Positions 4,686 through 23,198 of a stretch of DNA of 26,081 nucleotides are shown piece by piece. The stretch lies in the IMG/VR virus record IMGVR_UViG_3300044732_003010, positions 62,001 through 88,081 of that record. One strand, given 5' to 3'. This DNA is from an uncultured virus (IMG/VR IMGVR_UViG_3300044732_003010) (lineage: Duplodnaviria; Heunggongvirae; Uroviricota; Caudoviricetes). How positions within the stretch are numbered: position 1 is the stretch's first letter; each line of letters starts with the position of its first letter. The notes under the pieces were generated by a model that searched no databases, was not told where the DNA came from, and saw only the letters and a program-made list of their open reading frames with translations. Both the position numbers and the translations under genes were made by a program.

Positions 4686-7600
4686 TGTCTTTATCACTTG
4701 GTACTTTAGAAATCGGTCTAGGGCTAAATACAGCCCAATATGATAGCGGCATCAAATCGGCTAAAGACCAGCTTTCTTCCCTAGAGCGTCGTGTCACTAA
4801 ACTTGGCACGACTCCACTAAAAATTAAAGTTAGCGTCGATGACCGTCAGCTTTATGGGCTAAATAGTCATTTACTTTTAAAAAGAGTTGACCTTAAAAAG
4901 ACAGTTGATTTTTATAAAGCAAATCCTATTAAAGTATTTGCTGAAGATGACGCATTAGTTTCTCTTAACCAAGAGTTGCGTGAATTAAAAAAAACATCAG
5001 TAGAGATAAGAACACCTTCTAAAATTGTTGTTGAGCATCGGTTTTCTGGGTATCAAGATCGGGTAGAGAAAGCGATTGATCGATCTACTTCTCGAATATC
5101 GTCAGAAATTAGAATATCCTCTAGCAAAGGAGGCGTTGCAGGCGCAATTGGCCGTATTTTAATGTCTCCTTTTAAACTTGCGGGACGAGTTCTTGATGAC
5201 ATGGTTACTGGTTATTTCGAGAAACTAGGTCAATCCTTTGCAGAAGAGATAGGCGTAACATCAGCTAAAAATACAGCTAAAAAAATTAAATCCGCAATAA
5301 CAAAAATTGATGAACAATTAATTGGTAAAAACCAAGTATATGAAACGTTTTTATCGGAATTTTTTAGGTCAGGAAGTATAGAAAAAGCTACACAAGCTTC
5401 TTTTCCTCGCACCGAAGTAGGTAAAACTACAGAAAGACTTCAAAAATTACAAGAAATCGCATTAGTGCCTGCAAATAAACCACTGGAGCGTCTGAGATTA
5501 ATTAAAGAAAATTCTGAGTTAAATAAAATTTATCAACAAGTATTACAAAAAATAGAATCGGAAAATCCTGGTATTAAGCCGCGAGAAGCGGGGAAAAAAG
5601 CCATGGCTCAGTTTTTAGTTGACGCACAGCCACAAACACAAGTATTAAAAGGATTTGTTAATTCTTTTATTCAAGAAATGGCTCCTTTATTAAAATTTAT
5701 ACAAGGGATGAGGTCTTATAGAACATCAGTAGAAAGCCAAAAATATTACAACGAAAGAAAAGCAGGTTTTCCATTACTAAGAGAGGGGGAAGATGTAGTT
5801 AGTGTCATTGGAGGAGCGCAATTTAAGGGAGGTCAGGGTGGCAGACAAGTTGTTCAATCAATTGAATTATTAGCTCCTAATAAACGATTTATTCCTGTAG
5901 AAAATCCTGAAACTGATACTGATAAACAAAACCCTAATCTTTTAGAAAAAATGATTAGGGATAAAATAACTGAGATTGCCCCTGATTTTGCTGCTGGAGA
6001 AACCATAGATACAGCAATTAACGCTTTTCGGCAGGTAGTAAACGCTATTAACCCGTTCGGTTATTCTACGGCCGCAGCGCAAGCAATAGCCAATACCAGA
6101 TTAGCTGAAGAACAGGGTAAAAAAGGCAGTGTTGTTAGCTATTCTTTAGGAGGAGCAGATAACCTTCAGTATGCTCAAACAGCATCATATTTAGGAATGC
6201 AGCCACACGCATTAGCCATGGCTTATCCCTTTCTTAATTTTACTCAAAATACACCTAAAGGATTTAATGCAGCATTACTGAGTGGCGACCCTCTCGGTTT
6301 TGCCAAGTTATTAGGAATTGGAGTCAATACTAACCAATTCCGCTCGATTGAAAGTAATACTCCTTTTGGGCTATCAAATCACCACCAAAAACATTTATTT
6401 AAAGAACAACCTTTTCTAGATTTATTTTATAAGACTATTAATGCTGAACAGCCAGATATGACCCCAGGTCAACAATCAAAAGTTGTTCATGCCGGCGATA
6501 AGCTATATGAAGTATTGGGATCGACTCTACAATTAAAGTCACTTAAAGAAACAGGGGAATTTGATAAGACTCTACCTTATCATAGATTCTTGCAAGGATA
6601 CAGCAGTGGCAGTCCTAACGTAAGCGTAGAAGGATTTATTGCAAAGTTTTTTGAAGGGCTTCGTCTTATATCTTCTTTTGATACAAAAGAATTACAGCCT
6701 GTGTCACAAGCTTTAAAAAGTTTAATGGAACCTTTAATTCCATTTATAGCTAAAAAATTTAGACAAGGGGGTGCAAATTTACCAGAAAATCCTCAAGATT
6801 TTGCCGGGTATCAAAAATATCAACAAGAAGCAAAAAGTATAAACAGAGCATTATTAGAATTTAAATCAGGAAAACTTGCTGATACTCCTAGCTGGTATGC
6901 TGGAAATTTAGAGCCTAATGAAGTTAAAAGACGGACAGAAAAGATTAGAACCGAAACAATACCGTGGTTTACTTCTGAAGAAAGTACGTTTGGGCAAACT
7001 TACACAAAAAAAATTGTTGAAGCATACAAAAAAATAGCTGATGTTGCTGATGAATTTATTAAGACAGGAGGAAAACTATCGCAAAAAACCAAAGACAGTA
7101 TAAAAACTTTTGAAGTTGATGAGTTTTCTGGGGAATTAGCAAGTTTTTTAAATACACGCCTTGACACATCAACACTACCAAAAGAAGAAGAAGTAAGACA
7201 ATTACAGGTTACTGTTCCTGAAATTTTTCTGAAAAAGCAATCAGCTATTTTAGCTTACAACAAACTTCTTAACGCCGTAGGTAAAGAAATTCTTCCTGGT
7301 ATTTCTGAAATCAAAAAAATTGGTGCAGGAATGTCTGGAGCCGTTGCTCTTCTTTCAGATAATCTTGTTTATAAAACTGATCTTGACCCAATAGGAGCGA
7401 CAAAAATTGCGTCAGAAGATGAAATTAAGGCTTATGAGAAATTACAAGGTCGTTTGTCTCCTTTATTGTACAAAGCAGTTCCAGGTCAGGCTTTAATTAC
7501 TGAAAGAACACAAGGTCGTCCTTTAAAAGAAATACTTGATCGAATTGCACGTCCTTACAAAGAAATTCAGCAAAAAATACAGGAAGCTAATAAAGCATTA

Positions 7601-10600
7601 GAGTTAGCCATAGACAACAAAGATGCGACTAAAATCAAAGAGCTAAAAGTATTAACCAAAGAATTACAATCGTCTGCCAAAAAAGAACACAATCGTTTTA
7701 ATAAGGCCGCATCTATTCTATATCAACAAGTAGGACAACTTGGAGCATCCTTACAGGAAATGGGTGTTGTTCATAATGATTTAGCTGCAGCAAATGTATT
7801 TTTTGCACAAGGTGGAATTACTTCAATTGATCTCGGAAATGCAAAGGTTGATCCGACTAGCAGTGATAAATTTAACGATAAAATTACTACTATTCAGCGA
7901 GCAATTATTGATTCTAGCTATTACGGATTGATGGATCCTTTTAAAATAATAGGCGCAGTTCAATCTGGCTACTCAAAACCTTTTGCTACTCAAGTTTCTG
8001 ATTCTAATGCCAGACAAAAATCAGCCATTATCCCTCAGAAAAGAGAAATTAATGAAACTCTTCTTTCCCCTGTAGTAACAGGAAAAGCAATTTCATTAGG
8101 TTCATATACACCAACTTTATTAAAGCAAATCGTTGGTGATTTTTCTTTGCCTACTAAAGAAACTGTTTTCGCAAAAATAGATACTCCCGAACAAAAAAAA
8201 GAACAACCAATTCTAGATAATCAACCACAAAAACTTAATGATTTAGCTGCTACAGCTAAATCAAAATTAGAAGATGTTTTAGCTTCACGACTTGGTACTC
8301 CTGATAAATCGGGAGAAATTCAGCACCTTAGCGGGAATGAAGATTTTGCAGAATTACTACAATTAACTCTTGTAAGAGAATTAAAAACAGCAAGCCTTCT
8401 ACTTTCAAAAGCTTTCCGAGACACATCTCTTGACGTTATTAAATTTGGCCAGGTTGTTTTTACAGTCTTAAAAGCGATCGAGCGTCCAGTAATGGCTTTA
8501 CCTGGTGCTGCAATAGGTAAAAAAGCTATTCAGGTAGGGGGAACGGCTGCTATGGGAGCCGCCGCTCTCCACGCTCTCCCGATGGGGCTAGATGCCACGG
8601 TTGTCAATACTATGCGAGATATTCTTGCAGGGGCGATGAGTGCTGGCGGTCGGGGAATGGTCCAAGCCGTAGCCACACAAATGACTCAAGCTTTTAGCGG
8701 CTTGCCGTTTGGAGTGGGACAACAGCTAACGGAAGCAGTAGTGCAGCTTGTAACCGAAATAACTAACGGCACTATCAGCGTCCTATCGCAGGGGGGAGCA
8801 GTTGCTGGATCGGCGTTAATGGCCGGTGAAGGTGTTAAGAGACTCTTAGGAGCGGCTACCAGTAATGTTCCTAAATTAATTAGCAAAGAAGAACAGCAAA
8901 AAATTGAGGGTAAAACCCAGAAAGCATTAAAAGCGGCAAAGAATAAAGCTGATTCTTTGATTACCACTGAAATAACTCCATATTTCGATGAGAGAGTCTT
9001 CCCAGCAAGTAACCCTATTCCAGCTAACATCAAGGCAATTAACCCAGAATATTACACGGTAAAACAATTACGAGGATTGGCCAGAAATCAGGGAATTGAC
9101 GTACCAGCATCAGGAGCAGGAGCCAGAAAAGAGGAAATATGGAAATCGTTGACTGAAAAATTTAACCCTGATCAGCTAACTCGACTTTTACTAACAACAA
9201 AAGCAAGTGATAGAACAAAATTAGGGAAAAAAGAACTTAGTGGATTCCAGGTTGCATCTACAGAAATTCCTGCTGATTTTACTAAGAGAATTGGCATTGG
9301 CATAAAAAACATTGGTCAAGAAATTAATACTACTAAAGATATCCAATCTTTAGAACGTCTTTATTTTCAATTAGAAAAAGTTAAAAAGGGAATTACAGCG
9401 TTAAGAGCTAATCCTGAATTTAACACAACAAATATTAATAAATCATTAAGTGGCTTTTTACAGTCAGTTGATAATTTACAGACACAAATTCTTGCTAAAG
9501 GTGGTTTGGAGTCAGGGAAAAATCTCAACAAAGGTTTAGCTAAAGGATTAAAAGATACTAGCGCAAGCGACATCGCCTATCAAAACGCTCTTAAAATAGT
9601 AGATCAAATTGATAAAGGGCTGGGAAATGCTTCACCATCTTGGAAGGGGGAAGAATCGGGAGAAAATTTTATTAAAGGTGTGGCAATTGGAATAGAAAAA
9701 GGAATTTCTTCTTTTGATTTTCAGAGTTTAGCTAGTGAAGTTGTTAAAGGATTTGAATCAGGGTTGTCACTTGGCGATATTGAAAAAATTATTCAATCTT
9801 ATTTTGATGTAAATATTCCTAACTTAAAAGATTTAGCTGTTGAAGCGAAAATGATGGGGTGGGAAGGTAAACCAATTGACGGGCTACTAGAAAAAAAATT
9901 AAGCAAATTCCCTCTATCAAAAACTTTTACTCCTGTTGAACCCCCAAAAAATAATATTATTTCTTATCCTACCCCTACACGATTAATTGAATCAAACTTA
10001 CCATCGGAAAATGCGTTAGCTTCTGCTAGTATTAGACTCAAGCAATTATCTAATTTTTACGCTGGACATAAAACAGCTTTTGCAAATCTCAAAGCTATTT
10101 TAACACAAGGAATAGACCCTACTTTTAATCAATGGAGTTTAAGAAGAGACAGATTTGATTTTGAAAAACAAGTTTTCAAAGAACCTGTTGCTTATAGCGC
10201 AATTAACTCTTTTTCCGAACCGATTAAAGGAAATGATTACTATGGCGATGCTGAAATAATGCTCGATATAGCAAAAATTGCCAACCGATCAACATTTACT
10301 AGAGGTGACTCTGGTGCTTTTTGGAGAAATCCAAGCGAGATAATAACAAATCCTTTGTCTAGCTTTACACCAGACCAATACAATCGCAGACCTAATGAGA
10401 TACTTGAATACCTTGAGGTTCAAACTACTGGCAAAATTGATCCGTCTGATTTTTTAGGGATTAATTTAGGCGATATAGAAGAAAAGTACAATATTTATGG
10501 ACGCAAACTCATTGAAGTTATTGCATCTTCTTTAAGTGCTGGCGTTCCAGTATTCGCAAAAAACCTTGAAGCGATTAGTTCGATGTTTTCCAGTGAGGGC

Positions 10601-13600
10601 AGACAGTCTGGGTTAAATTATATCAAGGGGTTAAATATTGGATTACAAAATAATAATAGCGAAAAATACGCTTTAGATGTTGCGATTGGAATTATCGACG
10701 CAACAAATAAAGGGCTGGGAAATGCTTCACCGTCTAAAAAAGCGATGAAAGCAATGCGGTTTTTTTATGAAGGATTAGCGTTAGGGGCGCGTCATATTCG
10801 CTTCGGATTAAGGCTAGAGACTCAATTCGATAAAGAAGTAAGCGATTTTACTTTCTTTGTCGGGACGAGGTCAAAAGAAGCCCGAAAAGCGATCCTTCAA
10901 GCTGTTAAAGAAATGGTAAACCAAGGGGAACGCCTAGCGGCTATTAACGAGATTCAAGGCTCGATGAACACGGGAATTTTCGCTTCTCCCCGCGCTTTTC
11001 AAGTGATGAAGCGAGCTACCGTCATCGCTCGTCCAAAAACAACACGAGAAGAAATTCTTGACGACTGGAATAAAAAACGAGACAACATTTTCAACGCTCT
11101 CGATAGCATTGAAAAAGCGGGCGTTTCTAGTGGTTTTACAAACGGTATCGTAAGCGGACTAAAAGCTGTTATTGCCCAAGCGGACGGATTTATTAATTTC
11201 CTCTCGGTTGGTGGCAAAGCACTCAGAACTCTCGACCAAGAACTTAATGCCGCTACAGGAGGTATGATTAATCTTCGTAAAGGTGCTATAGCGGCAATTG
11301 GGGGATTTGCTCTTTTCAAAGGAGCAGAATTTTTATTACGACCTCTATTTTTTGCTATTTACGATATTCCTTTTAGGATTCAACAAGCTGTTACTGATTC
11401 TTTACTTGCTTTTACTGAGTTACAAAGAATTAAATTAAATTTAAATCTTGCTGGTGTAGGCAATGTAGAACAATCTCTTGACGCTTTAGTGGCAAGGGCT
11501 GACAAATTAGGAATATCCTTTAAAGAATCCGCTATTGCTTATAGCAGATTCAAATTAATTACTACCAATTCTCCACTACAAGCGCAGGCAGATAATATTT
11601 TTGAAGGATTCCAAGAGGCATTATCGGCGCGACAAACCAATGCCCAACAGCAAGCTGAATCTTTTAGAGCTATCGGGCAAATAGCCTCTAAAGCTGTTGT
11701 TTCCGTTGAAGAATTCACGCAGCAATTGAGCGAGTCAGGAGGATTAAACGACGCTTTAAACGTGGCCGCCCGATCAATGGGGTTAACCACTGCTCAATTT
11801 TATCAACAAGCATCAGCAGGCAATCTTTTGGTACAAGATGTTTTACCTCGATTAGCGGCCGAATATGAACGGATGAGTGCCGGAGGTCTTTCTCTCTCTA
11901 CTAAAACTTTACAATCGGAAATCTCTCGATTCCAGAACAATACCGAACAACTTCAAATGCAGTTAGGGGAAAAAATTGGAGTAGTCGCTTACCCTGCTTT
12001 ACAGGCATTAAATGCCGTCTTGAGTACCTTAAATGACAATCTAGGGACGGTGGCATCAGTGGGAGCCGCCGGGTTACTGTCAGTCATGGGATTCTTAGGA
12101 AAATCAGTCATGCAATTTGCGGCAGCGGGTCGGTTAGGAGCCGTTGCCAGTGCTGCTATGAGTGCATCCTTACAATCTGCCGGAGTAGCGTCTCTATCTA
12201 CAGCTACAGCCATGGGTAGATTAAAAGTATCTATAAACCTTGCTACTTTAGCAGGAATAGGATTAATTAAAGCATTGATTATTCCTACTGCGGTGATAAC
12301 TGGTATTCAATTTGTTTATAACGCATTAAATGCTGGTAGCGAAGAACTAAAACAAGCTGTAAGAACCCTAGAAGAGTCTAAAAAAGCTCTTGATGCTTGG
12401 CAAAACAAAACCGATAACAGTAATCGCAAAGGCCTAACAAGCTTTTTGCCTGACATGGAATTGTCTGGAGGAGAAAAGTTTTTTAATGTTATAACATTCG
12501 GGATTGTTTATAATTCTAAATGGCTTATGTCACTATTAGAATTACGACAAGGACTAGAAAACATTGATAAATCTCTGGCTACTGGAGTTGGGAATCTTAA
12601 AGAATATCAAAAAACTTTATCTAATTTTTCAGGTAGCAAGCAATTTTCATCTGAATTACAAGAAATCAGAAATAATTTAGCTTTAGTCAGAGCAGAAAGA
12701 ACAATTGCAAGCGCAAAAGGAAACGACCGATCTGTAGCTGAATTTAACCGGCGAGAGCAGGATTTAATGAAGCAAGAACAGGAGCTAATTAATAAACAGT
12801 TAGGTCCCGTTGGGTCAAGAATTACTGCCGACCTTCAACAATATGAGATGGCGTTAGCATCGTTAGAGCAAAGCTTTAAGAATAGAGATATAACTGACAT
12901 TGCTTACGCGCAACGTAAAAAAGACCTCGTGACTATAATTGGTCAACTAAAAAAAGCGGAACAAGATTATCTACAAGTCTTGAAAGATCAAGAAAAAGAA
13001 TATAGAAAATTACAAGTTGCCTTTGATCTTGCTATAAGAACAAGAGCTAATGCCAATTTTGCTAATGAAGGAAATAGTTTAAGTCGTTCAATTGGATTAA
13101 ATCAACAATTTGCATCAGGGGAAATTAATGAATTTCAGTTTAATGTTAAAGTTCGAGAAGAAAGCTTACAGACTGCTAAAGAGCGTATTGCCACTTTAGG
13201 CAATACAGCTAACTCTATCTCTAATACTTTAAACGAAAGGCTATCTAAATCTGCCAATAAAGTTTTAAGCACTTACTTTAAAGAAGATCTAAAACAGCTA
13301 AATGTAGCGAGCTTTGGTGGAGCAATTGCTGGAAATTTACTCTCTCCTGATGCTATTCAGCAAATAATGGATCAGTATGAATCTGACCTAAAAGATAACG
13401 CTGCTTTAAGATCTATTTTAAATCAGGCTAAAGAATACGCAACTGCTCGACGAGATATTTTAAACACTGAGAAAGAAATTCAGCAAATTAGTCGAGAGAT
13501 TATTGTCGAAAGAAAGAAAAGACAAATACAAGAAAAACAGGCTAGTAAAGAAATTGTTAAAGCAGAACAACTTACTAATCTAGCCAATAAAACCTCCTCC

Positions 13601-16600
13601 AGTCAAAATATTGGCTACGGACTAGAGCAAACCAAAATAAACTTGGCAGCTCTTTATAATCAATTAGCCTTAGAGCAAGAAAAATTAGTATTAAACGTAG
13701 ATGATCCGTTAACGGTCAAAACAGCTATTGCAAATATCACACAGCAAATAGCTGAAACCGAACTATCTTTAAGAGATCAGCAAGAGCAACTACAATACTA
13801 TTACCGCAACCTTGGCCGTCAGATAATCGACTTTAATCGTCAGATTGAAGATTATAGAAGACAGATTGAAGATGCTCAACTGTCAGCTTTTAGAGGAAAT
13901 CGTTCTCTATCTGAAAGTTACACTGATTTAGTCAGGGAACTCGACAAGAAACTCTTAAATGCCCAAAATCAGCTACTGGATGCGACCGATAGAATCAGGG
14001 TACAGCAAGTTAAAAACCGTTTATTAATACCCGGTACAAGCGACGCTGGTAAAGAATTAGGTGACATTTTCCTAGAATTTGTCCAGGGACAAGCTGACCT
14101 TGCCAGTCGCGGTCGCACCTTCCAATCCCGAACCGAGGAGATAGAAACTTCCTATATCTCTACTCTAAGAAATATTCGTAACTTACAAGAGCAACAGCAA
14201 GACGCTGAAAGAAGCCGACTAAGAACGATTGAGGATATTAAACGGACTCAAGAAAACCTTAATCGCACCTTAGCTGACTTAATCCGACAAACCAATAAAG
14301 AATTAGGCTTTATTCCCCAATCAATCAAGGATATTGTCACAAATCTTAATACACTTCCAGAACCAATTAAATTAATCAATTCTGAGTTAGTGGCTATTCC
14401 CCCAAATATTAAGACTTCTGGAGAAGACTTAATAAAAAGTATAGAAGAAACTGCGGAGGCAATTAGAAAAGCTAAGGAAGGTTTGATACTACCAGCACCT
14501 AGTAATTTCACCCCTGCTCCTGTGTGGAATGGGGGAGGGGTTTTACCGCCGCCACCGCCACAGTCGTCTTCAATTCCCAAAGGGTTAACACCACGCGGTC
14601 GAGAATTATCTCAATATTTAAACAATCCTCACGTCAAGGCCTTTCTTGATATTATTGCTTACGCAGAAGGTACTGCCAATATGCCAAATAAGGGATATAA
14701 CACCCTTTTTGGCCATGGACAATTTAGTTCTTTTGCAGACCATCCACGCCAAAGAATTCCGTTTGGATCAACCAGTTCATCGGCATCTGGAAGATACCAG
14801 ATCATGGATTTTACATGGAATGAAGAAAAAGCAAAATTAGGATTAAAAGATTTTTCTCCTGTCTCTCAAGATTTAGTCGCATTAAGTCGTATTTTAATGA
14901 GAGGTGGATTAGACGAGCTTCTTAAGGGAGATATTCGTGGGGCAATTAACGCAACCCGCAAAGAATGGGCATCTTTCCCAGGGGCTAATTACCCAGGGCA
15001 AGGCATGAAACGGATGGAAGACCTGTTAAGGGTTTACGATCAGTCTTTACGAAAATACCAACCAAATGCCCCTCGTACTCAATCCGAACTAGACGCACTG
15101 CGATATGACGGCAATCCTGCTAACAGCGGAGCATCAAACCGTATTCGACAAATCAGAAGAAATCAAGGCGGTTTACCCACTCCATCAACTTCCACCCCTA
15201 ACCCTTCTCCATCAGTTCAGCAACAAATCACCAACAGATTACCAAAAAATATTCAATCTGTTTTAGTTCAAGAAGTTGGCGGAAAAACTGTATATTCTAA
15301 AAATGCTCAAACACCTCCAGCGTCACCAGCTAGTACAATTAAAGTTATTATTGCTGATTTGATTGCCAAAGAAATAACAAGCGGAAAACTTTCCTTAAAA
15401 GATGCTATCGCCATAAAATTGCCTTTGGTTGATCCACACGGACAATTAAAAGCCAATCAAGTTAAAACAGTTGAACAGCTAGTACAGTTAATGCTAGAAA
15501 AGTCAGATAATACGGCAACTAATGTTTTAATTGATCGGCTAGGTGGGCTAACCAAAGCTACAGAATTAGCCAGAAAAGAAGGTTATAAAAACACTACTAT
15601 TTCTAGGTATTTAAATATACCAGGCAGTGGAACTCCAAACATTTCAACAGCACAAGACGTAACGTTAGCTATGCAGTCTTTAATTAAAAATCAAAATCCT
15701 GCAAGTCAATTAGCTGAACAATCTCTAAGACAAACAAGAAATTTTAAGTATAATAATGAAATCGGCGGAAAAATTGGAAATAACTCTAAAGTTATTGGTA
15801 ATGTTGGACTGGTAAACATTAATGGGAAAGAATATATTGTAACTGCTTATGCAAACATTAACGGCAATCAACTAAATAATCGAAAAATAATAACTAATGC
15901 TACTAATGCAATTAGCCAATCCATTAAAGACTCCACCCCTAACCCTTCTCCTGCCCGTGTTTTAACAAAAGAAGAAACAAAAGAAGGAAAAGGTGGACCA
16001 GAATTTAGTAGTCCTCCACCCATAGCTCAGTTACCGACTTTACCTAATCAAAACCGAGATAATTTCTGGGATGCCGATTTACCACCGGTTCTTAAAGACA
16101 ATCCGATTAACTTCCAGAGTCCTAATTTGCCTCCCGTTCCCAATCTTCCTACGGGTAATCTTGGCGCAGCGGCTGATCAAATTCGCAACGCTGAAACAGC
16201 TAATCAAAACGCTGAGGAGTTTTCAAGACGACTAGAAGAGCAACAAAATCTAAACAAGGCTCTTGACAGATCAATGAAATTTAGACGGCAGCAAGAGGAA
16301 GATGCCCGTGCATTAGAACGTACTTTAAGAAATGCTTCCGAAAATGTCGCTGATTTGACTATCAACTCTAAAGGGTATCTGACAGTACAAGAAGAAATTA
16401 ATAAGAGTGCTACAGAAGTCTCTCGTCAATATCGCTCTCAAATTGAATCACTAGAAGACCAGCGACGGACTTTACTTTTAAATGCTGAGGCTCAACAAAA
16501 ATACAGCGACGCGATAAAAGAAATCTTAGGAGAATTTCAAAGAAAAGGTATAGCTCTCCCCCCTGAATTTACCAAAGAAATGATAGATAGTATTGACGCT

Positions 16601-17833
16601 TTAGCTAAACGCGCTGAATTAGCTAAAGAACAGGTAGCAATTCTTGATCAAGCGATTGAACAATTAGGCAAGAATCAGGGAGTAGCCAGCTTAGAAGCAT
16701 CATTTAGAAAAACCAGAGATACAGTCAGGAGTATTCGTGATCGGTTAAATGATTTAACTATCCAAAGAATGAAGTTAGAGAATCAAGCCCGACCGACTTT
16801 ATTTGATGATTCTGCTATCCTTGCCGAACGTATTAGCCTACAAAAAGAAAAAGAGGAACTAGAGGATTATTTAGAACCTTACAAAGACTTACCACAATAC
16901 GCTGAATTTGTGGCTAATATTCGCTCGGAATGGGAAAAACTTGCAGAATTAAGATTAAAACGAGCGGAGTTAAACGCTTCCCCAAATCGTGGCGCAGCTG
17001 AAAGCTTTTTCTCTGATATTAGAGAAGGAAAAGGAATAGGATCGGCTTTTAGTAGTCTTGGATTAAATATCATGACAAAATTTGTTGAGGGTATTACTAA
17101 GCCCGCTATCGATGCTTTAACTTCTGCTATCGATGGATTTACAAAGCCGATTACTCAGGCATTTGAATCAGTATTTAATGCAATCATCGGTCCAGTAGGT
17201 AACTTTTTCACTAATGCCCTCAGTAGCATTTTTAAACCAGTAGGTAACATCTTTTCCTCTATCTTTGGGGGCGGTGGCGGAGGTGGCTTATTTAATGGCT
17301 TACTTAGCGGAATAACAGGGATTTTTAGTGGAGGGATTGGGGGACTTGGTTCGATTGGATCACTTGGTAGTATAGGAGCCTCTAGTTTTGCTTCTGCTCC
17401 GGCTTCTGCCTTTTCTCTAGGTACAGGATTCAGCTTATTTAGTGATGGCGGGAAAGTTGGAGATGCCAATGTTCCGATAGAGAAAAATATCATTTCAGCT
17501 TTTCAGCGCGAACGAGCAATGTCGGGAGGCCGAAAACCTCGCTTGATCGTAGCTAATGAAGACGAATTGGTTCTTAACCCTAAAGAAACAGAAGCATATC
17601 TAGAGTACAGAAATAATGCTCCTATTAAGAACTATGCTAATGGAGGATTTGTCGGGGGTAAGCCTAATTACTCCACAACCTCAAATAACAATAGCTCTAA
17701 TCAGTCTTTGGTAATTAATAACACCAATAACGTGACTGTAGAATCACGGAATGATATGGGGTATAGTTTGAATCAATTGAAAGAACGGGAAAATGCACAA
17801 AATGAACGAACTAAAAAACGATTCTTTGGGTAA
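4685..17833 (+). CDS. Giant multi-domain tape measure protein (~4382 aa) with alpha/beta-hydrolase-like, kinase-like, ART-like, lambda-type lysozyme and PBP/class-A beta-lactamase-like domains
   Basis: N-terminal SLGTLEIGLGLNTAQYDSGI, GLGNASPS motifs, tape-measure core (GQIASKAVVSVEEFTQQLSE...AARSMG ~11400-12100), long coiled coils, position after G/GT; ATG 4685 overlaps the gpT stop (TAATG) with a GGGGAG RBS. Confidence 0.9.
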   Translation: MSLSLGTLEIGLGLNTAQYDSGIKSAKDQLSSLERRVTKLGTTPLKIKVSVDDRQLYGLNSHLLLKRVDLKKTVDFYKANPIKVFAEDDALVSLNQELRELKKTSVEIRTPSKIVVEHRFSGYQDRVEKAIDRSTSRISSEIRISSSKGGVAGAIGRILMSPFKLAGRVLDDMVTGYFEKLGQSFAEEIGVTSAKNTAKKIKSAITKIDEQLIGKNQVYETFLSEFFRSGSIEKATQASFPRTEVGKTTERLQKLQEIALVPANKPLERLRLIKENSELNKIYQQVLQKIESENPGIKPREAGKKAMAQFLVDAQPQTQVLKGFVNSFIQEMAPLLKFIQGMRSYRTSVESQKYYNERKAGFPLLREGEDVVSVIGGAQFKGGQGGRQVVQSIELLAPNKRFIPVENPETDTDKQNPNLLEKMIRDKITEIAPDFAAGETIDTAINAFRQVVNAINPFGYSTAAAQAIANTRLAEEQGKKGSVVSYSLGGADNLQYAQTASYLGMQPHALAMAYPFLNFTQNTPKGFNAALLSGDPLGFAKLLGIGVNTNQFRSIESNTPFGLSNHHQKHLFKEQPFLDLFYKTINAEQPDMTPGQQSKVVHAGDKLYEVLGSTLQLKSLKETGEFDKTLPYHRFLQGYSSGSPNVSVEGFIAKFFEGLRLISSFDTKELQPVSQALKSLMEPLIPFIAKKFRQGGANLPENPQDFAGYQKYQQEAKSINRALLEFKSGKLADTPSWYAGNLEPNEVKRRTEKIRTETIPWFTSEESTFGQTYTKKIVEAYKKIADVADEFIKTGGKLSQKTKDSIKTFEVDEFSGELASFLNTRLDTSTLPKEEEVRQLQVTVPEIFLKKQSAILAYNKLLNAVGKEILPGISEIKKIGAGMSGAVALLSDNLVYKTDLDPIGATKIASEDEIKAYEKLQGRLSPLLYKAVPGQALITERTQGRPLKEILDRIARPYKEIQQKIQEANKALELAIDNKDATKIKELKVLTKELQSSAKKEHNRFNKAASILYQQVGQLGASLQEMGVVHNDLAAANVFFAQGGITSIDLGNAKVDPTSSDKFNDKITTIQRAIIDSSYYGLMDPFKIIGAVQSGYSKPFATQVSDSNARQKSAIIPQKREINETLLSPVVTGKAISLGSYTPTLLKQIVGDFSLPTKETVFAKIDTPEQKKEQPILDNQPQKLNDLAATAKSKLEDVLASRLGTPDKSGEIQHLSGNEDFAELLQLTLVRELKTASLLLSKAFRDTSLDVIKFGQVVFTVLKAIERPVMALPGAAIGKKAIQVGGTAAMGAAALHALPMGLDATVVNTMRDILAGAMSAGGRGMVQAVATQMTQAFSGLPFGVGQQLTEAVVQLVTEITNGTISVLSQGGAVAGSALMAGEGVKRLLGAATSNVPKLISKEEQQKIEGKTQKALKAAKNKADSLITTEITPYFDERVFPASNPIPANIKAINPEYYTVKQLRGLARNQGIDVPASGAGARKEEIWKSLTEKFNPDQLTRLLLTTKASDRTKLGKKELSGFQVASTEIPADFTKRIGIGIKNIGQEINTTKDIQSLERLYFQLEKVKKGITALRANPEFNTTNINKSLSGFLQSVDNLQTQILAKGGLESGKNLNKGLAKGLKDTSASDIAYQNALKIVDQIDKGLGNASPSWKGEESGENFIKGVAIGIEKGISSFDFQSLASEVVKGFESGLSLGDIEKIIQSYFDVNIPNLKDLAVEAKMMGWEGKPIDGLLEKKLSKFPLSKTFTPVEPPKNNIISYPTPTRLIESNLPSENALASASIRLKQLSNFYAGHKTAFANLKAILTQGIDPTFNQWSLRRDRFDFEKQVFKEPVAYSAINSFSEPIKGNDYYGDAEIMLDIAKIANRSTFTRGDSGAFWRNPSEIITNPLSSFTPDQYNRRPNEILEYLEVQTTGKIDPSDFLGINLGDIEEKYNIYGRKLIEVIASSLSAGVPVFAKNLEAISSMFSSEGRQSGLNYIKGLNIGLQNNNSEKYALDVAIGIIDATNKGLGNASPSKKAMKAMRFFYEGLALGARHIRFGLRLETQFDKEVSDFTFFVGTRSKEARKAILQAVKEMVNQGERLAAINEIQGSMNTGIFASPRAFQVMKRATVIARPKTTREEILDDWNKKRDNIFNALDSIEKAGVSSGFTNGIVSGLKAVIAQADGFINFLSVGGKALRTLDQELNAATGGMINLRKGAIAAIGGFALFKGAEFLLRPLFFAIYDIPFRIQQAVTDSLLAFTELQRIKLNLNLAGVGNVEQSLDALVARADKLGISFKESAIAYSRFKLITTNSPLQAQADNIFEGFQEALSARQTNAQQQAESFRAIGQIASKAVVSVEEFTQQLSESGGLNDALNVAARSMGLTTAQFYQQASAGNLLVQDVLPRLAAEYERMSAGGLSLSTKTLQSEISRFQNNTEQLQMQLGEKIGVVAYPALQALNAVLSTLNDNLGTVASVGAAGLLSVMGFLGKSVMQFAAAGRLGAVASAAMSASLQSAGVASLSTATAMGRLKVSINLATLAGIGLIKALIIPTAVITGIQFVYNALNAGSEELKQAVRTLEESKKALDAWQNKTDNSNRKGLTSFLPDMELSGGEKFFNVITFGIVYNSKWLMSLLELRQGLENIDKSLATGVGNLKEYQKTLSNFSGSKQFSSELQEIRNNLALVRAERTIASAKGNDRSVAEFNRREQDLMKQEQELINKQLGPVGSRITADLQQYEMALASLEQSFKNRDITDIAYAQRKKDLVTIIGQLKKAEQDYLQVLKDQEKEYRKLQVAFDLAIRTRANANFANEGNSLSRSIGLNQQFASGEINEFQFNVKVREESLQTAKERIATLGNTANSISNTLNERLSKSANKVLSTYFKEDLKQLNVASFGGAIAGNLLSPDAIQQIMDQYESDLKDNAALRSILNQAKEYATARRDILNTEKEIQQISREIIVERKKRQIQEKQASKEIVKAEQLTNLANKTSSSQNIGYGLEQTKINLAALYNQLALEQEKLVLNVDDPLTVKTAIANITQQIAETELSLRDQQEQLQYYYRNLGRQIIDFNRQIEDYRRQIEDAQLSAFRGNRSLSESYTDLVRELDKKLLNAQNQLLDATDRIRVQQVKNRLLIPGTSDAGKELGDIFLEFVQGQADLASRGRTFQSRTEEIETSYISTLRNIRNLQEQQQDAERSRLRTIEDIKRTQENLNRTLADLIRQTNKELGFIPQSIKDIVTNLNTLPEPIKLINSELVAIPPNIKTSGEDLIKSIEETAEAIRKAKEGLILPAPSNFTPAPVWNGGGVLPPPPPQSSSIPKGLTPRGRELSQYLNNPHVKAFLDIIAYAEGTANMPNKGYNTLFGHGQFSSFADHPRQRIPFGSTSSSASGRYQIMDFTWNEEKAKLGLKDFSPVSQDLVALSRILMRGGLDELLKGDIRGAINATRKEWASFPGANYPGQGMKRMEDLLRVYDQSLRKYQPNAPRTQSELDALRYDGNPANSGASNRIRQIRRNQGGLPTPSTSTPNPSPSVQQQITNRLPKNIQSVLVQEVGGKTVYSKNAQTPPASPASTIKVIIADLIAKEITSGKLSLKDAIAIKLPLVDPHGQLKANQVKTVEQLVQLMLEKSDNTATNVLIDRLGGLTKATELARKEGYKNTTISRYLNIPGSGTPNISTAQDVTLAMQSLIKNQNPASQLAEQSLRQTRNFKYNNEIGGKIGNNSKVIGNVGLVNINGKEYIVTAYANINGNQLNNRKIITNATNAISQSIKDSTPNPSPARVLTKEETKEGKGGPEFSSPPPIAQLPTLPNQNRDNFWDADLPPVLKDNPINFQSPNLPPVPNLPTGNLGAAADQIRNAETANQNAEEFSRRLEEQQNLNKALDRSMKFRRQQEEDARALERTLRNASENVADLTINSKGYLTVQEEINKSATEVSRQYRSQIESLEDQRRTLLLNAEAQQKYSDAIKEILGEFQRKGIALPPEFTKEMIDSIDALAKRAELAKEQVAILDQAIEQLGKNQGVASLEASFRKTRDTVRSIRDRLNDLTIQRMKLENQARPTLFDDSAILAERISLQKEKEELEDYLEPYKDLPQYAEFVANIRSEWEKLAELRLKRAELNASPNRGAAESFFSDIREGKGIGSAFSSLGLNIMTKFVEGITKPAIDALTSAIDGFTKPITQAFESVFNAIIGPVGNFFTNALSSIFKPVGNIFSSIFGGGGGGGLFNGLLSGITGIFSGGIGGLGSIGSLGSIGASSFASAPASAFSLGTGFSLFSDGGKVGDANVPIEKNIISAFQRERAMSGGRKPRLIVANEDELVLNPKETEAYLEYRNNAPIKNYANGGFVGGKPNYSTTSNNNSSNQSLVINNTNNVTVESRNDMGYSLNQLKERENAQNERTKKRFFG
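9612..10731 (+). repeat. 25-bp perfect direct repeat pair (9612-9636 and 10707-10731) inside the tape measure gene
   Basis: ATAAAGGGCTGGGAAATGCTTCACC twice, 1095 bp (365 codons) apart. Confidence 0.9.
15191..15951 (+). repeat. 20-bp perfect direct repeat pair (15191-15210 and 15932-15951) inside the tape measure gene
   Basis: TCCACCCCTAACCCTTCTCC twice, 741 bp (247 codons) apart. Confidence 0.9.
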
Positions 17834-19612: not shown

Positions 19613-21316
19613 ATGAAAGAAGGTCGATCCATAAAAGCCATGCTAGTCAAGAAAACTATTGCGGACATAAAACTTAACCTTAATGCCACTCAGCGAACCT
19701 ATATTGATCGCTGGATGGACGAGCTTAAAGCTGTCTGGAATTTTGGGCTAGAGCTACTGATGGAATATCAGCTTAATAAGTATTACGACGAGCTTGAGAA
19801 AATAACAGGAAAACCAGTTAAACGGGTTAAACGTCGTTTAGCTAAAAAAACTCAATTTATTGACTCCCTAAAAAACGAAAAAGGTAAATCCCTTCCTAAT
19901 CCCCTTTACACCCCTAAATATTTAACTGGCAAGCAAAAAGTTAAAATACAGATAGCTAGAGAAAAAAGACAAAAAGCAGGTTACTCTTATCCTGTCCATA
20001 TCCCTATTCAACGGCGGTTAAAATCTGATAATTATTTTGGGTTATGTGGCTGTATTACAAAAGAAAAATGTCCAGAACTATGCAAGGACATCCCTATGGC
20101 TTTTGTCCAAGGGGTTTTAAAAAAGCTTGCTGATTCCTGGAAAGCTTACACCAAACTCGATAAAAAGAATTTAGACAGAAAACTTCCTAGATTTAAAAGA
20201 AAAGAAGATAAAATTAAATCTCTTTATTCTGAGATCAGCAATTGCGCTGTTAGAAAAGGGGATAAAATATCTATAGGTAGCTGTGGCAAAACATTAGGCG
20301 ATTTAAAGATTGTCAACAATACTTTAGATATTCGGTGGGGTGACAGAAAAGCCTCTACCGTATCAATTATCAAATACCCATCGGGATATTATCTAAGTCT
20401 ATTTGGTGAATTTGAAGTAGATGATCTACCTGATTCCGATAAAGCGATCGGTATTGACGTAGGACTAGAATATATAATTAGTACCAGCGACGGCCAACAA
20501 ATTGACCCGCCCAAATACTATAGAAAACAGCAAAAAAGACTAGCAAAACTGCAAAGAAAAACCGCTAGACAGTATAAAGCAGGGGAAAATAAAGACGGCA
20601 AAAATCTCGCTAAAACTCGTGCTAAAGTTGCCAAAACTCACGAAAAAATAGCAAGACAACGCAAAGGATTTAATCATGCCCTAAGTACCGATATTGCTAG
20701 AAATCATGGCGCTGTAGCCGTAGAAGACCTCAACTTAAAGAATTTAATGCGACGACCTAAACCGAAAAAAAGAGAAGACGGTAAAGGCTACGAACGCAAT
20801 AACGCGAAAGCCAAAGGGGGATTAAATAAATCCTTTGCTGATGCTAGTTTAGGACAATTAACTGGTTTTCTTGAAACGAAAATGAAAACTCCCAACCGAG
20901 AGTTTATCAAAGTTCAACCAGCCTATACTAGCCAAGATTGTCCTCGCTGTGGCAATCGTGTTAAAAAAAGTTTATCAACCCGCACCCATAAATGTTTAGA
21001 GTGTGGATGTACTTTACCCAGAGATGTGGCCGCCGCAATCAACATCTTAGGGAAAGCAGACTTCGTAAGAAGCTACCCGGCTTGTACCGGGGAAGTTAAG
21101 CCTCTGAAGGATTTCGATAAGGAATCAGCGCAGGAGGAATTACTTAGCAAGTCCAGCCGATTGTTACTCGGCGAAGAAACCCTCGAAACCTTACTGGTTT
21201 TGACCTCCGAGCCAGTGACACCCAAGAAAAAAACAAGGAAAAGGTCGATCCACTCGCAACCCGCGCAAACAGTCAACGCAGGCTATACGCAGCTTACACT
21301 CTGGGAGACTGGGTAA
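19613..21316 (+). CDS. tnpB: TnpB-family / compact type V (Cas12-like) RNA-guided nuclease, CRISPR-associated
   Basis: IS605 OrfB-like N-terminus; RuvC-I AIGIDVG, RuvC-II VAVEDL, Zn finger CPRC...CLEC, RuvC-III RDVAAAINI; array begins inside the stop region; start may be ATG 19640. Confidence 0.9.
   Translation: MKEGRSIKAMLVKKTIADIKLNLNATQRTYIDRWMDELKAVWNFGLELLMEYQLNKYYDELEKITGKPVKRVKRRLAKKTQFIDSLKNEKGKSLPNPLYTPKYLTGKQKVKIQIAREKRQKAGYSYPVHIPIQRRLKSDNYFGLCGCITKEKCPELCKDIPMAFVQGVLKKLADSWKAYTKLDKKNLDRKLPRFKRKEDKIKSLYSEISNCAVRKGDKISIGSCGKTLGDLKIVNNTLDIRWGDRKASTVSIIKYPSGYYLSLFGEFEVDDLPDSDKAIGIDVGLEYIISTSDGQQIDPPKYYRKQQKRLAKLQRKTARQYKAGENKDGKNLAKTRAKVAKTHEKIARQRKGFNHALSTDIARNHGAVAVEDLNLKNLMRRPKPKKREDGKGYERNNAKAKGGLNKSFADASLGQLTGFLETKMKTPNREFIKVQPAYTSQDCPRCGNRVKKSLSTRTHKCLECGCTLPRDVAAAINILGKADFVRSYPACTGEVKPLKDFDKESAQEELLSKSSRLLLGEETLETLLVLTSEPVTPKKKTRKRSIHSQPAQTVNAGYTQLTLWETG
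21070..21170 (+). ncRNA. Putative tracrRNA (omegaRNA-derived scaffold plus anti-repeat) inside the nuclease CDS; ends approximate
   Basis: Hairpin CCCGG-CTTGTA-CCGGG (21076-21091); anti-repeat TACTTAGCAAGTCCAGCCGATTGTTAC (21141-21167) matches the reverse complement of repeat nt 1-27 at 25/27. Confidence 0.75.
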
Positions 21317-21563
21317 CAATCGGCTTGACTTGTTAAGTAGATTGCAAGTTGCCAATTCAGATAGGGCGATAGGTCGTTGCCACGTAACAATCGGCTTGAC
21401 TTGTTAAGTAGATTGCAAGTCCCACTGAGAAGTGATTCAATGTCAATCGATTTCATAGTAACAATCGGCTTGACTTGTTAAGTAGATTGCAAGGAACCGC
21501 TAAAGTGTCGCTGTCAGTCGGTTTTAGGTAACAATCGGCTTGACTTGTTAAGTAGATTGCAAG
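21313..21563 (+). CRISPR. CRISPR array: four identical 36-bp repeats GTAACAATCGGCTTGACTTGTTAAGTAGATTGCAAG with spacers of 35, 38 and 34 bp
   Basis: Repeats at 21313-21348, 21384-21419, 21458-21493 and 21528-21563 with unique spacers; a further 39-bp spacer-like segment at 21564-21602. Confidence 0.97.
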
Positions 21564-21602
21564 TATGAACCAAGTGACACAGAACCCACTACAAAAGAAC
21601 TT

Positions 21603-21711
21603 CAAGCAATTAAGCTTAAGCCTTATTAGGGATTGAAACATCTACTCCTTTGTGGGATAAATCCCACCGGGCCACAGAAACAATTAAGCTTAAGCCTTAC
21701 TAAGATTAAAC
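21603..21711 (+). CRISPR. Second-family mini-array: type I-D-like repeat, 37-bp spacer, degenerate repeat
   Basis: CAATTAAGCTTAAGCCTTATTAGGGATTGAAAC (21607-21639) and CAATTAAGCTTAAGCCTTACTAAGATTAAAC (21681-21711), period 74 bp; canonical ATTGAAAC 3' end. Confidence 0.7.
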
Positions 21712-21736
21712 TAAATATTAAACCCGAAAAAAAACA

Positions 21737-22024
21737 ATGAATCAAACACAACTAGATAAAAAGATTAGTCAATTTTTAAGGAAAAAATTAACCAAAGCGG
21801 AACTAAAAGAAATGGAAATAAAACCACGTTCTTTAATCTTAACAATACGCAATTTTGTCGAGAGGTATCTACTTATCATTTTAGATAGTATTTTTGTTGA
21901 TGTCCCTCGTGGATGGGATAACTTTTTTGAAAGTTTTCGTTTTTGGCAAAAGCTAATACTTAAAAGAAATAAATCTCTGCTAGTAATTTATTTCTGGGAA
22001 ACTATTAATAATTATAAAGAATAA
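21737..22024 (+). CDS. Hypothetical protein (95 aa)
   Basis: ORF in a tightly packed run of three; no motif recognised. Confidence 0.55.
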   Translation: MNQTQLDKKISQFLRKKLTKAELKEMEIKPRSLILTIRNFVERYLLIILDSIFVDVPRGWDNFFESFRFWQKLILKRNKSLLVIYFWETINNYKE

Positions 22025-22027
22025 ATA

Positions 22028-22354
22028 ATGAATCACGAAATTTATCTTATTGGAATACCAACTTTATTGCTAGGATTTCTCTTGGGAACATGGTTAGCCT
22101 ATTTCTCGTGGGCTGACACTCGAAACAAAAAACTTGGTATAGACTTTAAATACCGGTACAAAAAGCCGATTAGTGCTAAGGAATTTGCTATAGAGAATTA
22201 CATCTCTTTAAAACAATCTAAGCAATTCCTTGACAATAAACTTTTAGAGTTTGGGGGAATAGTAGTTTCCCAAAATGGTGACAGTGAATATCATTTTGAT
22301 ATATCAGGATTTCTTATTGAAGAACAAGGCAATGGAAAAATACACTTTGACTAA
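22028..22354 (+). CDS. Hypothetical protein with an N-terminal transmembrane helix
   Basis: IYLIGIPTLLLGFLLGTWLAYFSW hydrophobic segment. Confidence 0.6.
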   Translation: MNHEIYLIGIPTLLLGFLLGTWLAYFSWADTRNKKLGIDFKYRYKKPISAKEFAIENYISLKQSKQFLDNKLLEFGGIVVSQNGDSEYHFDISGFLIEEQGNGKIHFD

Positions 22355-22523
22355 AATAGAACAAGATGGGAGTGCCAAAACTTTCATCTATCAACCAAGT
22401 GACACAGAACCCACTAAAAAAGAACTTAAGGATAAATTAATAGAAATCTTAATGAAAATCAAAACACTGACATCGGAAAAAGTAAATCTAATTTATTTTT
22501 TTATCAAAGTTATAGACAAATAA
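22332..22523 (+). CDS. Hypothetical protein (63 aa) containing the match to the junction spacer
   Basis: ATG 22332 (MEKYTLTKIEQDG...) preferred over 22275; 22389-22427 matches 21564-21602. Confidence 0.55.
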   Translation: MEKYTLTKIEQDGSAKTFIYQPSDTEPTKKELKDKLIEILMKIKTLTSEKVNLIYFFIKVIDK

Positions 22524-22553
22524 CTTTAATTCTGATAGGATAAATTTAAACAA

Positions 22554-22636
22554 GGATTGGTGGCCGAGTAGTCGAAGGCGACAGACTGTAAATCTGTAGA
22601 TTTAATTCCACGCTGGTGCAAATCCAGCCCAACCCA
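22554..22636 (+). tRNA. tRNA-Tyr(GTA)
   Basis: Acceptor GGATTGG/CCAACCC (one A-C mismatch), anticodon arm ACAGA-CTGTAAA-TCTGT, long variable region, T arm GCTGG-TGCAAAT-CCAGC, discriminator A, no encoded CCA. Confidence 0.88.
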
Positions 22637-22652
22637 CTTAAAATCAAACATA

Positions 22653-22681
22653 TTGACAAAATCAAAGACTTGACCTATGAT
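22653..22681 (+). promoter_or_regulatory. Near-consensus sigma70 promoter
   Basis: TTGACA-17 nt-TATGAT; implies the downstream gene starts at ATG 22710. Confidence 0.75.
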
Positions 22682-22709
22682 AAAAAGTTACAGCGATTAC
22701 AGTCACACT

Positions 22710-23120
22710 ATGTTTGATACAAATAAATACTTAGAATTATTAAAACAATACCCTCCTCGTCCTATTTACGACAAGGAAAAGCTAGAAAACACAGAAAAAG
22801 TTATCAGTTCTTTTTTAGATAAAATCATATTAGATAAAATTCAATTGACAATAGAAGAAAGGGAGTATTTAAATGTTTTAGGAACTTTGATTTATGAGTA
22901 TGAGGAAAATCAAGAGCCAATACCTGATATTTATGGAGTTGAGCTATTGAAATTTTTGTTAGAACTAAAGAACTTGCAAAAGCAAGACTTATTATCTATT
23001 TTTGAGGATCAATCAATCCTAGATGATATTTTTAATAGGCAGCGAGAGATAACAGATATTCACGTTCAAAAATTAGCCGATTTTTTTAATATCTCTCCTA
23101 CTTTATTTTTTCCTAAATAG
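22710..23120 (+). CDS. HigA-like antitoxin / XRE-HTH regulator without an adjacent toxin
   Basis: PRPI...EEREYLNVLGTLIYEYEE...LLKFLLE..NLQKQDL..IF...I...QREIT..HVQKLADFFNISP pattern typical of the HigA (COG5499-like) family. Confidence 0.8.
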   Translation: MFDTNKYLELLKQYPPRPIYDKEKLENTEKVISSFLDKIILDKIQLTIEEREYLNVLGTLIYEYEENQEPIPDIYGVELLKFLLELKNLQKQDLLSIFEDQSILDDIFNRQREITDIHVQKLADFFNISPTLFFPK

Positions 23121-23125
23121 GTCAA

Positions 23126-23198
23126 GGGTTGATGGCCGAGCGGTTAAGGCAACGAACTCATAATTCGTCTTAGGTAGGTTCGATTCCTACTCAACCTA
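23126..23198 (+). tRNA. tRNA with CAT anticodon (elongator Met or lysidine-modified Ile2; not initiator)
   Basis: Acceptor GGGTTGA/TCAACCT, anticodon arm ACGAA-CTCATAA-TTCGT, T arm GTAGG-TTCGATT-CCTAC; lacks the three G-C pairs of initiator tRNA. Confidence 0.88.

Follow-up and report, generated by a model that had tools for sequence, protein, structure and literature searches.

The genome of an uncultured lake cyanophage (IMG/VR record IMGVR_UViG_3300044732_003010, here G000) encodes a type V-U2 effector followed by a CRISPR array, and the spacer behind the fourth repeat of this array, S, is nearly identical to part of a small gene located further downstream. Judging from comparisons of related phage sequences, S is probably the last guide unit of the phage-encoded V-U2 array and is directed at the allele of this small accessory gene found in sister phages. 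The stretch of DNA analysed, called the window, is 26,081 nucleotides long and comprises bases 62001–88081, i.e. the end, of the 88,081-bp record, which is rated complete.

Spacer S and the alleles of its probable target gene

In a direct comparison, the 39 nucleotides of S (21564–21602) and a segment of the small gene (22389–22427) are identical at 37 bases. They differ at position 4, which is G in the array copy and C in the gene copy, and at position 29, which is C and A, respectively. Translation in the frame of the small gene gives YEPSDTEPTTKEL and YQPSDTEPTKKEL for the two copies. Outside the 39 nucleotides the likeness ends, with four of seven bases shared upstream and no run of shared bases downstream. 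The left edge of S is set by the end of the fourth 36-nucleotide repeat (21563) and the right edge by a second-family repeat that begins at 21603. The gene copy lies 825 nucleotides from S, on the downstream side of the array, and is directly preceded by TTTCATC. An earlier note on the window had described the match, its coincidence with the end of repeat 4 and the start of a 37-nucleotide second-family repeat, and the TTTCATC flank. The direct comparison bore out the first two, and reading of positions 20900–22800 the third.

The spacers compared in this study comprise 90 distinct spacers of family 1, from 36 contigs, and 36 distinct spacers of family 2. Twelve of the 90 family-1 spacers have the same length as S. 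A chance match between S and the small gene is excluded because the expected number of 39-mers with at most two mismatches in 88 kb is about 1e-14; the 39-mer is also found again in relatives, in the same position. For the other spacers of the window, no match longer than 15 nucleotides to their own genome was present among the matches listed.

Table 1 Features around spacer S, in window coordinates
Feature	Position	Strand	Basis or remark
Effector-1, 567-amino-acid type V-U2 (C2c8) TnpB-like nuclease	19613–21316	+	NCBIfam, PADLOC, Pfam, alignment
Anti-repeat, candidate tracrRNA/omega-RNA-like part	21141–21167	+	Within the 3' end of the effector-1 reading frame
Family-1 array, four exact 36-nucleotide repeats	21313–21348, 21384–21419, 21458–21493, 21528–21563	+	
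Family-1 spacers 1, 2, 3	21349–21383, 21420–21457, 21494–21527	+	
Junction spacer S, 39 nucleotides	21564–21602	+	37/39 to own genome, 39/39 to contig L082; same start as five fusions
Family-2 array remnant: repeat 2a, spacer, degenerate repeat 2b	21603–21639, 21640–21676, 21677–21713	+	37-nucleotide unit
Two small reading frames between S and protospacer	21737–22024, 22028–22354	+	Missing in fused relatives
PAM-like ATC and own protospacer	22386–22388, 22389–22427	+	Differs from S at guide positions 4 and 29
Small gene, 63 amino acids, holds the protospacer	22332–22523	+	Reading-frame list; 15 distinct intact alleles in relatives

The small gene varies among relatives. A 24-nucleotide core of the 39-mer is found in 15 IMG/VR contigs, ten of which carry it in the context of the gene, all with A at position 29. 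A perfect protospacer, which the earlier note had proposed to seek in related phages and metagenomes, was found in one contig, L082, the only contig in a metagenome scan to combine the gene context with C at position 29. The small gene of L082 is identical to S at 39 of 39 bases and follows …TTTTATC, and its 40th base is unlike that of the array. The proposal that S is a spacer against the allele of a sibling phage is thus supported by the sequence of a sister contig with a full-length protospacer and an ATC flank. Alleles of the L011 type (flank ATC) and the L013 type (flank ATT), present in six IMG/VR contigs, mismatch S at position 29 only. The resident allele of G000 and its group mismatch S at positions 4 and 29; the commonest allele of the gene does so at positions 11, 13, and 29. 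Apart from position 29, the protospacer varies at positions 3–19 only. The product of the small gene has no lead in Pfam, PHROG, or Atlas, and the two open reading frames (ORFs) between S and the protospacer have no match in Pfam or PHROG.

The junction is also present in field material. Contigs of the lake DNA run X1 contain the window-type junction without any difference (21535–22429) at a depth of about 11. The same run contains a variant of the small gene at a depth of about 48, with three substitutions that, among the alleles compared, are jointly found only in those of L011 and L013. In RNA library X21, the contig depth over the family-2 repeat is very high, contig depth being no measure of expression.

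One further spacer matches a sister phage. When the 126 spacers were compared with G000 and all loci, the only other full match outside arrays was that of spacer 1 of contig L047, which is identical at 37 of 37 bases to window positions 5745–5781, within the tail gene (ORF 4637–17833). The 34-kb record of L047 is itself without the matched segment of the tail gene; the segment is present in the sister genome G404 and absent from G403, G405, and G406. By its sequence match, spacer 1 of L047 is a second putative sibling-directed spacer, and S is not unique.

The V-U2 cassette, its probable prey, and its putative guide

Effector-1 matches the NCBIfam model NF038192 (C2c8) with 369.7 bits, above the cutoff of 350, and its best PADLOC match is Cas12u2 (1.5e-125). 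The Pfam domains detected in it are OrfB_IS605 and Cas12f1-like_TNB. The segments GIDVG, VEDL, and PRD of effector-1 align with the D, E, and D columns of the RuvC domain of ISDra2 TnpB (8bf8), which we take to be catalytic. The zinc ribbon CPRCG..CLECG is kept relative to ISDra2 TnpB, with both CxxC pairs. By this alignment, the RuvC triad of effector-1 is intact in G000. A C2c8 score above the cutoff, the triad with the zinc ribbon, and an adjoining array without adaptation genes, which are the features expected of type V-U2, were all found.

The 3' end of the effector-1 ORF contains an anti-repeat of 27–28 nucleotides that is 93% complementary to each of the four family-1 repeats. In the minimum-free-energy fold of positions 21060–21370, the anti-repeat pairs with repeat 1 (z = −4.3). 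The placement of an anti-repeat inside the end of the effector gene is the layout expected of a scaffold derived from a trans-activating CRISPR RNA (tracrRNA) or an omega-RNA, and the segment is a candidate for such an element. The candidate region has no match in Rfam. The first family-1 repeat overlaps the stop codon of effector-1, and the array begins at this stop. The 3' end of the family-1 repeat is …GAUUGCAAG. In four contigs (L011/L012/L019, which are L055–L057, and L054), the effector is cut to codons 457–567, the anti-repeat part, and an array of six repeats is kept. The small gene of these contigs is of the type matched by S over its first 28 bases.

The arrays of relatives are highly diverse and contain up to 15 repeats. 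Spacers 1 and 2 of the window are also present in L005/L028. In IMG/VR, a 16-mer of spacer 3 finds only arrays and two partial matches, and the spacers of a 14-spacer array have no protospacer in GenBank phages. Several arrays include short 'spacers' of 18–20 nucleotides (spacer 6 of L005, spacer 3 of L010/L040, and spacer 3 of L045), and L045 also has one of 59 nucleotides. Such very short and very long spacers suggest imprecise events inside the arrays.

A search for protospacers in 401 cyanobacterial genomes identified one 8.8-kb contig, L079 (G155:C112:1-8846), that is matched by many spacers. At least 22 family-1 and six family-2 spacers of many sister arrays match it with 74–94% identity, and relatives of spacers 1 and 3 of the window also match this element. 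The 22 family-1 spacers that match L079 with at least 75% identity were used to compare the flanks of the protospacers. On the 5' side, T occupies position −2 in 17 of the 22 protospacers (binomial p = 3e-6) and position −1 in 13, and A or T (W) occupies position −3 in 19. The 3' flanks of the same 22 protospacers contain no motif. This logo of natural protospacers points to W-T-N as the 5' protospacer-adjacent motif (PAM) of family-1 guides. Since the motif is on the 5' side and none is found on the 3' side, the order would be repeat-guide, as in Cas12 and TnpB, and the ATC flank of the small gene fits. The earlier note had placed position 4 of S at the PAM-proximal end of the guide, which is what the protospacers of these other spacers support. 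L079 contains a gene for a tyrosine integrase and a 1012-amino-acid ORF without a family match. Because of the integrase, the usual prey of the arrays would be an integrative element of the host, and the phage CRISPR seems to be aimed mainly at this element.

We hypothesize that transcription of the array accompanies or follows that of the effector gene, that the anti-repeat pairs with the repeat, and that the mature guide consists of the 3' end of the repeat and about the first 20 nucleotides of S. The complex would cut the genomes of co-infecting sisters that have G at position 4, and the mismatch in the seed would spare the carrier.

S could instead be a self-directed regulator, a mismatched guide that binds without cutting and tunes the small gene of its own genome. 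The resident copy of the gene keeps the ATC flank and 37 of 39 identical bases, and a regulatory role for V-U2 is raised by the authors of the study of cyanophage CL131, in a passage of that paper (PMC6293099). However, the RuvC triad of effector-1 is intact, and the mismatch at position 4 lies at the start of pairing. One sister has a perfect target, and the target lies in a coding region, not in a promoter. Furthermore, the small gene is destroyed by fusion in five relatives and is therefore dispensable rather than finely regulated. We regard regulation of the resident gene as very improbable.

Junctions between the terminal repeat and downstream DNA

A search for the effector in relatives identified 37 loci with 94–100% identity. 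Together with one metagenome contig, they provided 36 contigs in which the end of the array is visible. The contigs differ in the sequence that follows the terminal repeat. In class W, formed by G000 and two near-identical contigs, the repeat is followed by S and then by the family-2 repeat. In class F (five contigs), it is followed by the small gene, from the base at which S starts to the stop codon of the gene; the 5' 57 nucleotides of the gene are gone, with all that lies upstream. Class A (four contigs) continues with the sequence found 41 nucleotides before the ATG of the small gene in unfused genomes, and class B (three contigs) with the 3' part of ORF 22028–22354. Class T (17 contigs) continues with GAAAC and a trailer, which, according to L052, are the end of the family-2 repeat and its downstream DNA. 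The four other contigs have various sequences in this place.

The left break is the exact end of the repeat in every class. The three bases that precede the fused sequence in unfused genomes are ATA for classes A and B, ATC or ATT for class F, and ATT or GTT for class T. All four junction flanks are compatible with W-T, for which the background chance is 0.0017. The fused contig L040 and the unfused contig L042 contain the same four spacers, and are 99.7% identical in the upstream DNA and 99.5% identical in the downstream DNA. Past the terminal repeat, L040 corresponds to L042 with 935 nucleotides removed. At guide positions 11 and 13, L040 has the guide-type bases G and G, and the gene of L042 has C and A; a plain deletion is therefore excluded. 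The form of L040 can be explained by a spacer that was copied from another allele and recombined with the resident gene, or by the transfer of a junction from another fused phage. The effector genes of L041, which is also fused, and L042 are identical. Fusion-type joints were not present among the contigs listed for four sequencing runs, and contigs drop rare variants.

The cut of Cas12-type nucleases falls far from the PAM. End-joining after such a cut would therefore not put the break at the first base of the protospacer, and homology between spacer and protospacer does. We infer that classes F, A, B, and T are collapsed spacer–protospacer pairs, and that the window is the one uncollapsed case, which would be tolerated because of the seed mismatch. 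Between a spacer and a matching protospacer in cis, recombination or single-strand annealing would remove the intervening DNA and leave the terminal repeat joined to the rest of the gene. The fused form, seen in five contigs, would retain the guide and lose the PAM on its own copy.

The fused forms also resemble the end of a scaffold joined to a target with loss of a target-adjacent motif (TAM)-like sequence, and effector-1 is TnpB-like (221 bits to the TnpB model NF040570). In L039, the cassette lies inside ORF 22028–22354 relative to the family-2 cassette. The effector-array cassette could accordingly have transposed into the small gene in the manner of IS200/IS605 elements, with the junction as the right end of the transposon and S as its flank. 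We rejected this scenario as extremely improbable. Among the 98 ORFs of at least 75 amino acids in the whole 88-kb genome, none has a TnpA-like or serine recombinase Pfam match. Fused and unfused genomes do not differ in the upstream neighbours of the cassette, and upstream of it the 5' part of the small gene is not found. As L040 lacks 935 nucleotides that L042 has downstream of the array, the event is a deletion and not an insertion.

The repeat on the right side of S belongs, by its sequence context, to a second, paralogous V-U2 cassette carried by sister phages. The second effector is a 629-amino-acid ORF (L039:124–2013) located upstream of full family-2 arrays, with 29% identity to effector-1. 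It scores 463 bits with the C2c8 model NF038192, has Cas12u2 as its best PADLOC match, and contains the D/E/D residues. The second effector is whole in L039/L050, which carry both V-U2 cassettes, and the loci L008, L006, and L072 have it at their edges. G000, in which the array remnant is present, lacks it, and the window therefore contains cassette 1 whole and only the tail of the array of cassette 2. In sisters, family-2 arrays reach 26 repeats (L006). An origin of the family-2 repeat from host-type (I-D/III) arrays was ruled out by the position of the second V-U2 effector directly upstream of full family-2 arrays. The sole 'bacterial' match to a family-2 array is L072, labelled Crocinitomicaceae; L073 (Microcoleus) shares the last 22 nucleotides only. 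L072 (JBIPMW010000346.1) is a 4.7-kb contig from a Crocinitomicaceae metagenome-assembled genome bin, in which the family-2 array precedes the ORF starting at window position 21737. It is probably a mis-binned cyanophage locus.

Seven spacer clusters include spacers of both families, some of them offset by a few bases. The last spacers are near-identical between L033 (family 1) and L072 (family 2), and between L013 (family 1) and L006 (family 2). These similarities suggest exchange between the two types of array at their distal ends. The family-2 repeat to the right of S is best explained by recombination, which probably took place with the cassette-2 array of sisters. The most economical origin of S that we can offer is a single crossover in about 35–39 nucleotides of shared sequence, between the terminal guide or fusion of cassette 1 and a cassette-2 spacer against the small gene. 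Such a cassette-2 spacer, which a spacer–spacer crossover needs, was not found in IMG/VR with the 24-nucleotide core.

Given these rearrangements, S might be an inert scar of recombination, left by a repeat–gene fusion or by two recombined arrays, and carried passively without a working guide, for instance for want of a downstream family-1 repeat or of expression of the array. At least six kinds of sequence follow the terminal repeat in this highly rearranged locus, which also contains truncated spacers of 15–20 nucleotides, partial family-2 repeats (L045, L052), and, in four contigs, effectors cut to amino acids 457–567. S is located between repeats of two different families, and the contigs of RNA libraries stop at the first repeat, short of S. 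Nevertheless, S is bounded by repeats with base precision on both sides, and its length is typical of family-1 spacers. Its identity with a natural sister allele spans exactly 39 nucleotides, the 40th base being different, and the PAM of that allele is compatible with the consensus. The effector is intact in G000. In type V systems the guide sits 3' of the repeat, and the terminal unit therefore needs no downstream repeat. We consider a passive scar unlikely. As an alternative, the earlier note had offered a remnant captured at a recombination junction. This idea is retained in part, since five contigs contain a repeat–gene fusion that starts from the same base and the right neighbour of S was probably recombined in, but S still fits a spacer directed at a sibling.

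Several observations weigh against S as a sibling-directed guide. It is followed by a family-2 repeat and not by a family-1 repeat, and the C at position 21603 is unaccounted for. The window-type junction is limited to one lineage, that of the three class W contigs, and is thus unreplicated. The allele with C at position 4 is common also in relatives without S (L005, L006, L008), and so need not be an escape variant. Variable sites of the small gene are weakly enriched in the PAM and positions 1–20 (7/23 vs 24/169), which is not significant (Fisher p = 0.066). The protospacer of L047 spacer 1 on G000 has the flank AAT, which is off the consensus. The fused forms occupy two places in the effector tree, where a single origin is not rejected (approximately unbiased test, p = 0.11). 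None of the 98 ORFs of G000 matches the models of Cas1, Cas2, Cas4, or Cas6. The contigs of three RNA libraries reach only from the 3' end of the effector to the first repeat, and may be DNA carry-over.

We also entertain the doubtful possibility that the repeat–gene fusion is a selfish CRISPR 'deletion drive' in the phage population. The hard-wired terminal guide would cut the intact allele of a co-infecting sister, and repair from the fused genome, or annealing at the spacer, would copy the fusion and delete about 0.8–0.9 kb. If this is true, the junction would spread across genomic backgrounds and alleles would diversify at guide positions 3–19. Such a drive would constitute a natural bridge between TnpB homing, in which the flank serves as the guide, and CRISPR immunity. 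It would also account for the frequent targeting, by virus-borne spacers, of DNA beside their own array.

Comparison with known systems

Excerpts of published work describe the mini-CRISPR arrays of the Sulfolobus portogloboviruses SPV1 and SPV2 as virus-borne elements of interviral conflict (Medvedeva et al. 2019, PMC6858448; model in PMC7099407). Like these arrays, as they are presented there, the array of G000 has a spacer that matches a close relative, the orthologous site of the carrier is point-mutated, and the target is located near the array. In the same excerpts, SPV1 and SPV2 arrays have one or two spacers and no cas gene, and use the Cas proteins of the host. In contrast, G000 encodes its own V-U2 effector, and its family has arrays of up to 15 repeats, with many spacers against another mobile element and a spacer that has repeatedly merged with its target gene. 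The cause and the consequences of the proximity between array and target are left open for SPV1 and SPV2 in the part of the paper that concerns them (PMC6858448).

A type V-U2 CRISPR-Cas is carried by the Aphanizomenon phage vB_AphaS-CL131 (MG209611.1), a cyanophage whose host is a filamentous cyanobacterium, as stated in sections of its genome paper (PMC6293099). The CL131 effector is the nearest published relative of effector-1, with 38.6% identity over 88% of the query in tblastn. In both phages, the array is located downstream of its effector, the 36-nucleotide repeat ends in GCAAG, and adaptation genes are absent. Unlike the G000 family, CL131 has one cassette, and the sections of its paper identify neither a tracrRNA nor a PAM (PMC6293099). 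According to the same sections, a single spacer weakly matches a cyanobacterial pseudogene, and no spacer that matches a sibling or the phage itself is mentioned. In an excerpt of a review from 2024, V-U2 is still without a listed PAM (PMC11641405).

The terminal repeat has a guide-like 3' flank in the five fused contigs, where it is part of arrays with 1–14 ordinary spacers. In TnpB homing, the guide is the flank 3' of the RNA scaffold, and the transposon cuts its own empty site. Similarly, the sequence 3' of the scaffold in the fused relatives is the guide, it matches the unfused allele, and the carrier is without the adjacent motif. Unlike in TnpB homing, there is no transposase match and no transposition, and the junction is a deletion beside a multi-spacer array. 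Of the transposase, ends, and varied sites expected of an IS200/IS605 element, the first has no Pfam match in the 98 ORFs of G000, and the upstream neighbours of the cassette are the same in fused and unfused genomes. Homing by TnpB and omega-RNA in IS200/IS605 elements is described in the available part of 10.1101/2023.11.30.569447.

Cas12p ('Cas12 hacker') is summarized in part of 10.1101/2025.01.20.633832 as a phage-borne, TnpB-like, tracrRNA-dependent miniature nuclease with a GTN PAM and a dependence on thioredoxin. It is the second-best PDB sequence match of effector-1 (PDB 9jfs, E 4e-27). The likeness is located mainly in residues 274–468 of effector-1, and the N-terminal stretches are weakly similar (i-Evalue 6.6 and 0.018). 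Similarity to Cas12p over the full length was not found, and the curated model that effector-1 matches is C2c8.

Two further cases offer parallels. Recombination between spacers and protospacers was reportedly described by Varble et al. in 2019. As in that case, spacer–protospacer homology would drive recombination here, in cis, on one phage genome, with deletion of the intervening DNA. Phage ICP1 is said to turn its CRISPR on the PLE island (Seed et al. 2013). The G000 family resembles it in a phage CRISPR aimed at an integrative host element, here of type V-U2 and in a cyanophage.

Virus-borne spacers against near relatives, with a mutated site in the carrier, are already known, and so is V-U2 in a cyanophage. 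In the open-access literature searched, we found no description of a spacer–protospacer collapse in a virus genome, of a perfect sister allele with a mismatched resident allele in a virus with its own effector, of recurrent repeat–gene fusions with PAM-compliant flanks, or of a phage family with two paralogous V-U2 cassettes.

V-U2 is among the last type V groups without a known PAM, guide architecture, and biology. The natural data of this phage family supply a PAM with T at −2 and, within the effector ORF, a candidate tracr element. They also supply a clear set of targets, together with two paralogous cassettes that swap and recombine. S, the sister allele that it matches perfectly, and the relatives with fusions form a testable picture of CRISPR conflict among near-identical viruses, and the same set displays the outcome of having a spacer and its target on one molecule. 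It offers an answer to the question of why virus-borne spacers target regions beside their arrays. The sequences of the repeat–gene fusions in sisters and the perfect sister match point to CRISPR warfare between near-identical viruses.

G000 encodes NblA, a ribonucleotide reductase, a terminase, and a tape-measure domain. The gene for NblA, a protein of phycobilisome degradation, is located at G000 positions 31096–31356. The segment 4637–17833 of the window is a single ORF of 4398 codons, with a tape-measure domain and, near its C-terminal part, a domain of the beta-lactamase family. Genes for tRNA-Tyr (22554–22637) and tRNA-Met (23126–23198) are positioned in the window just downstream of the 63-amino-acid small gene.

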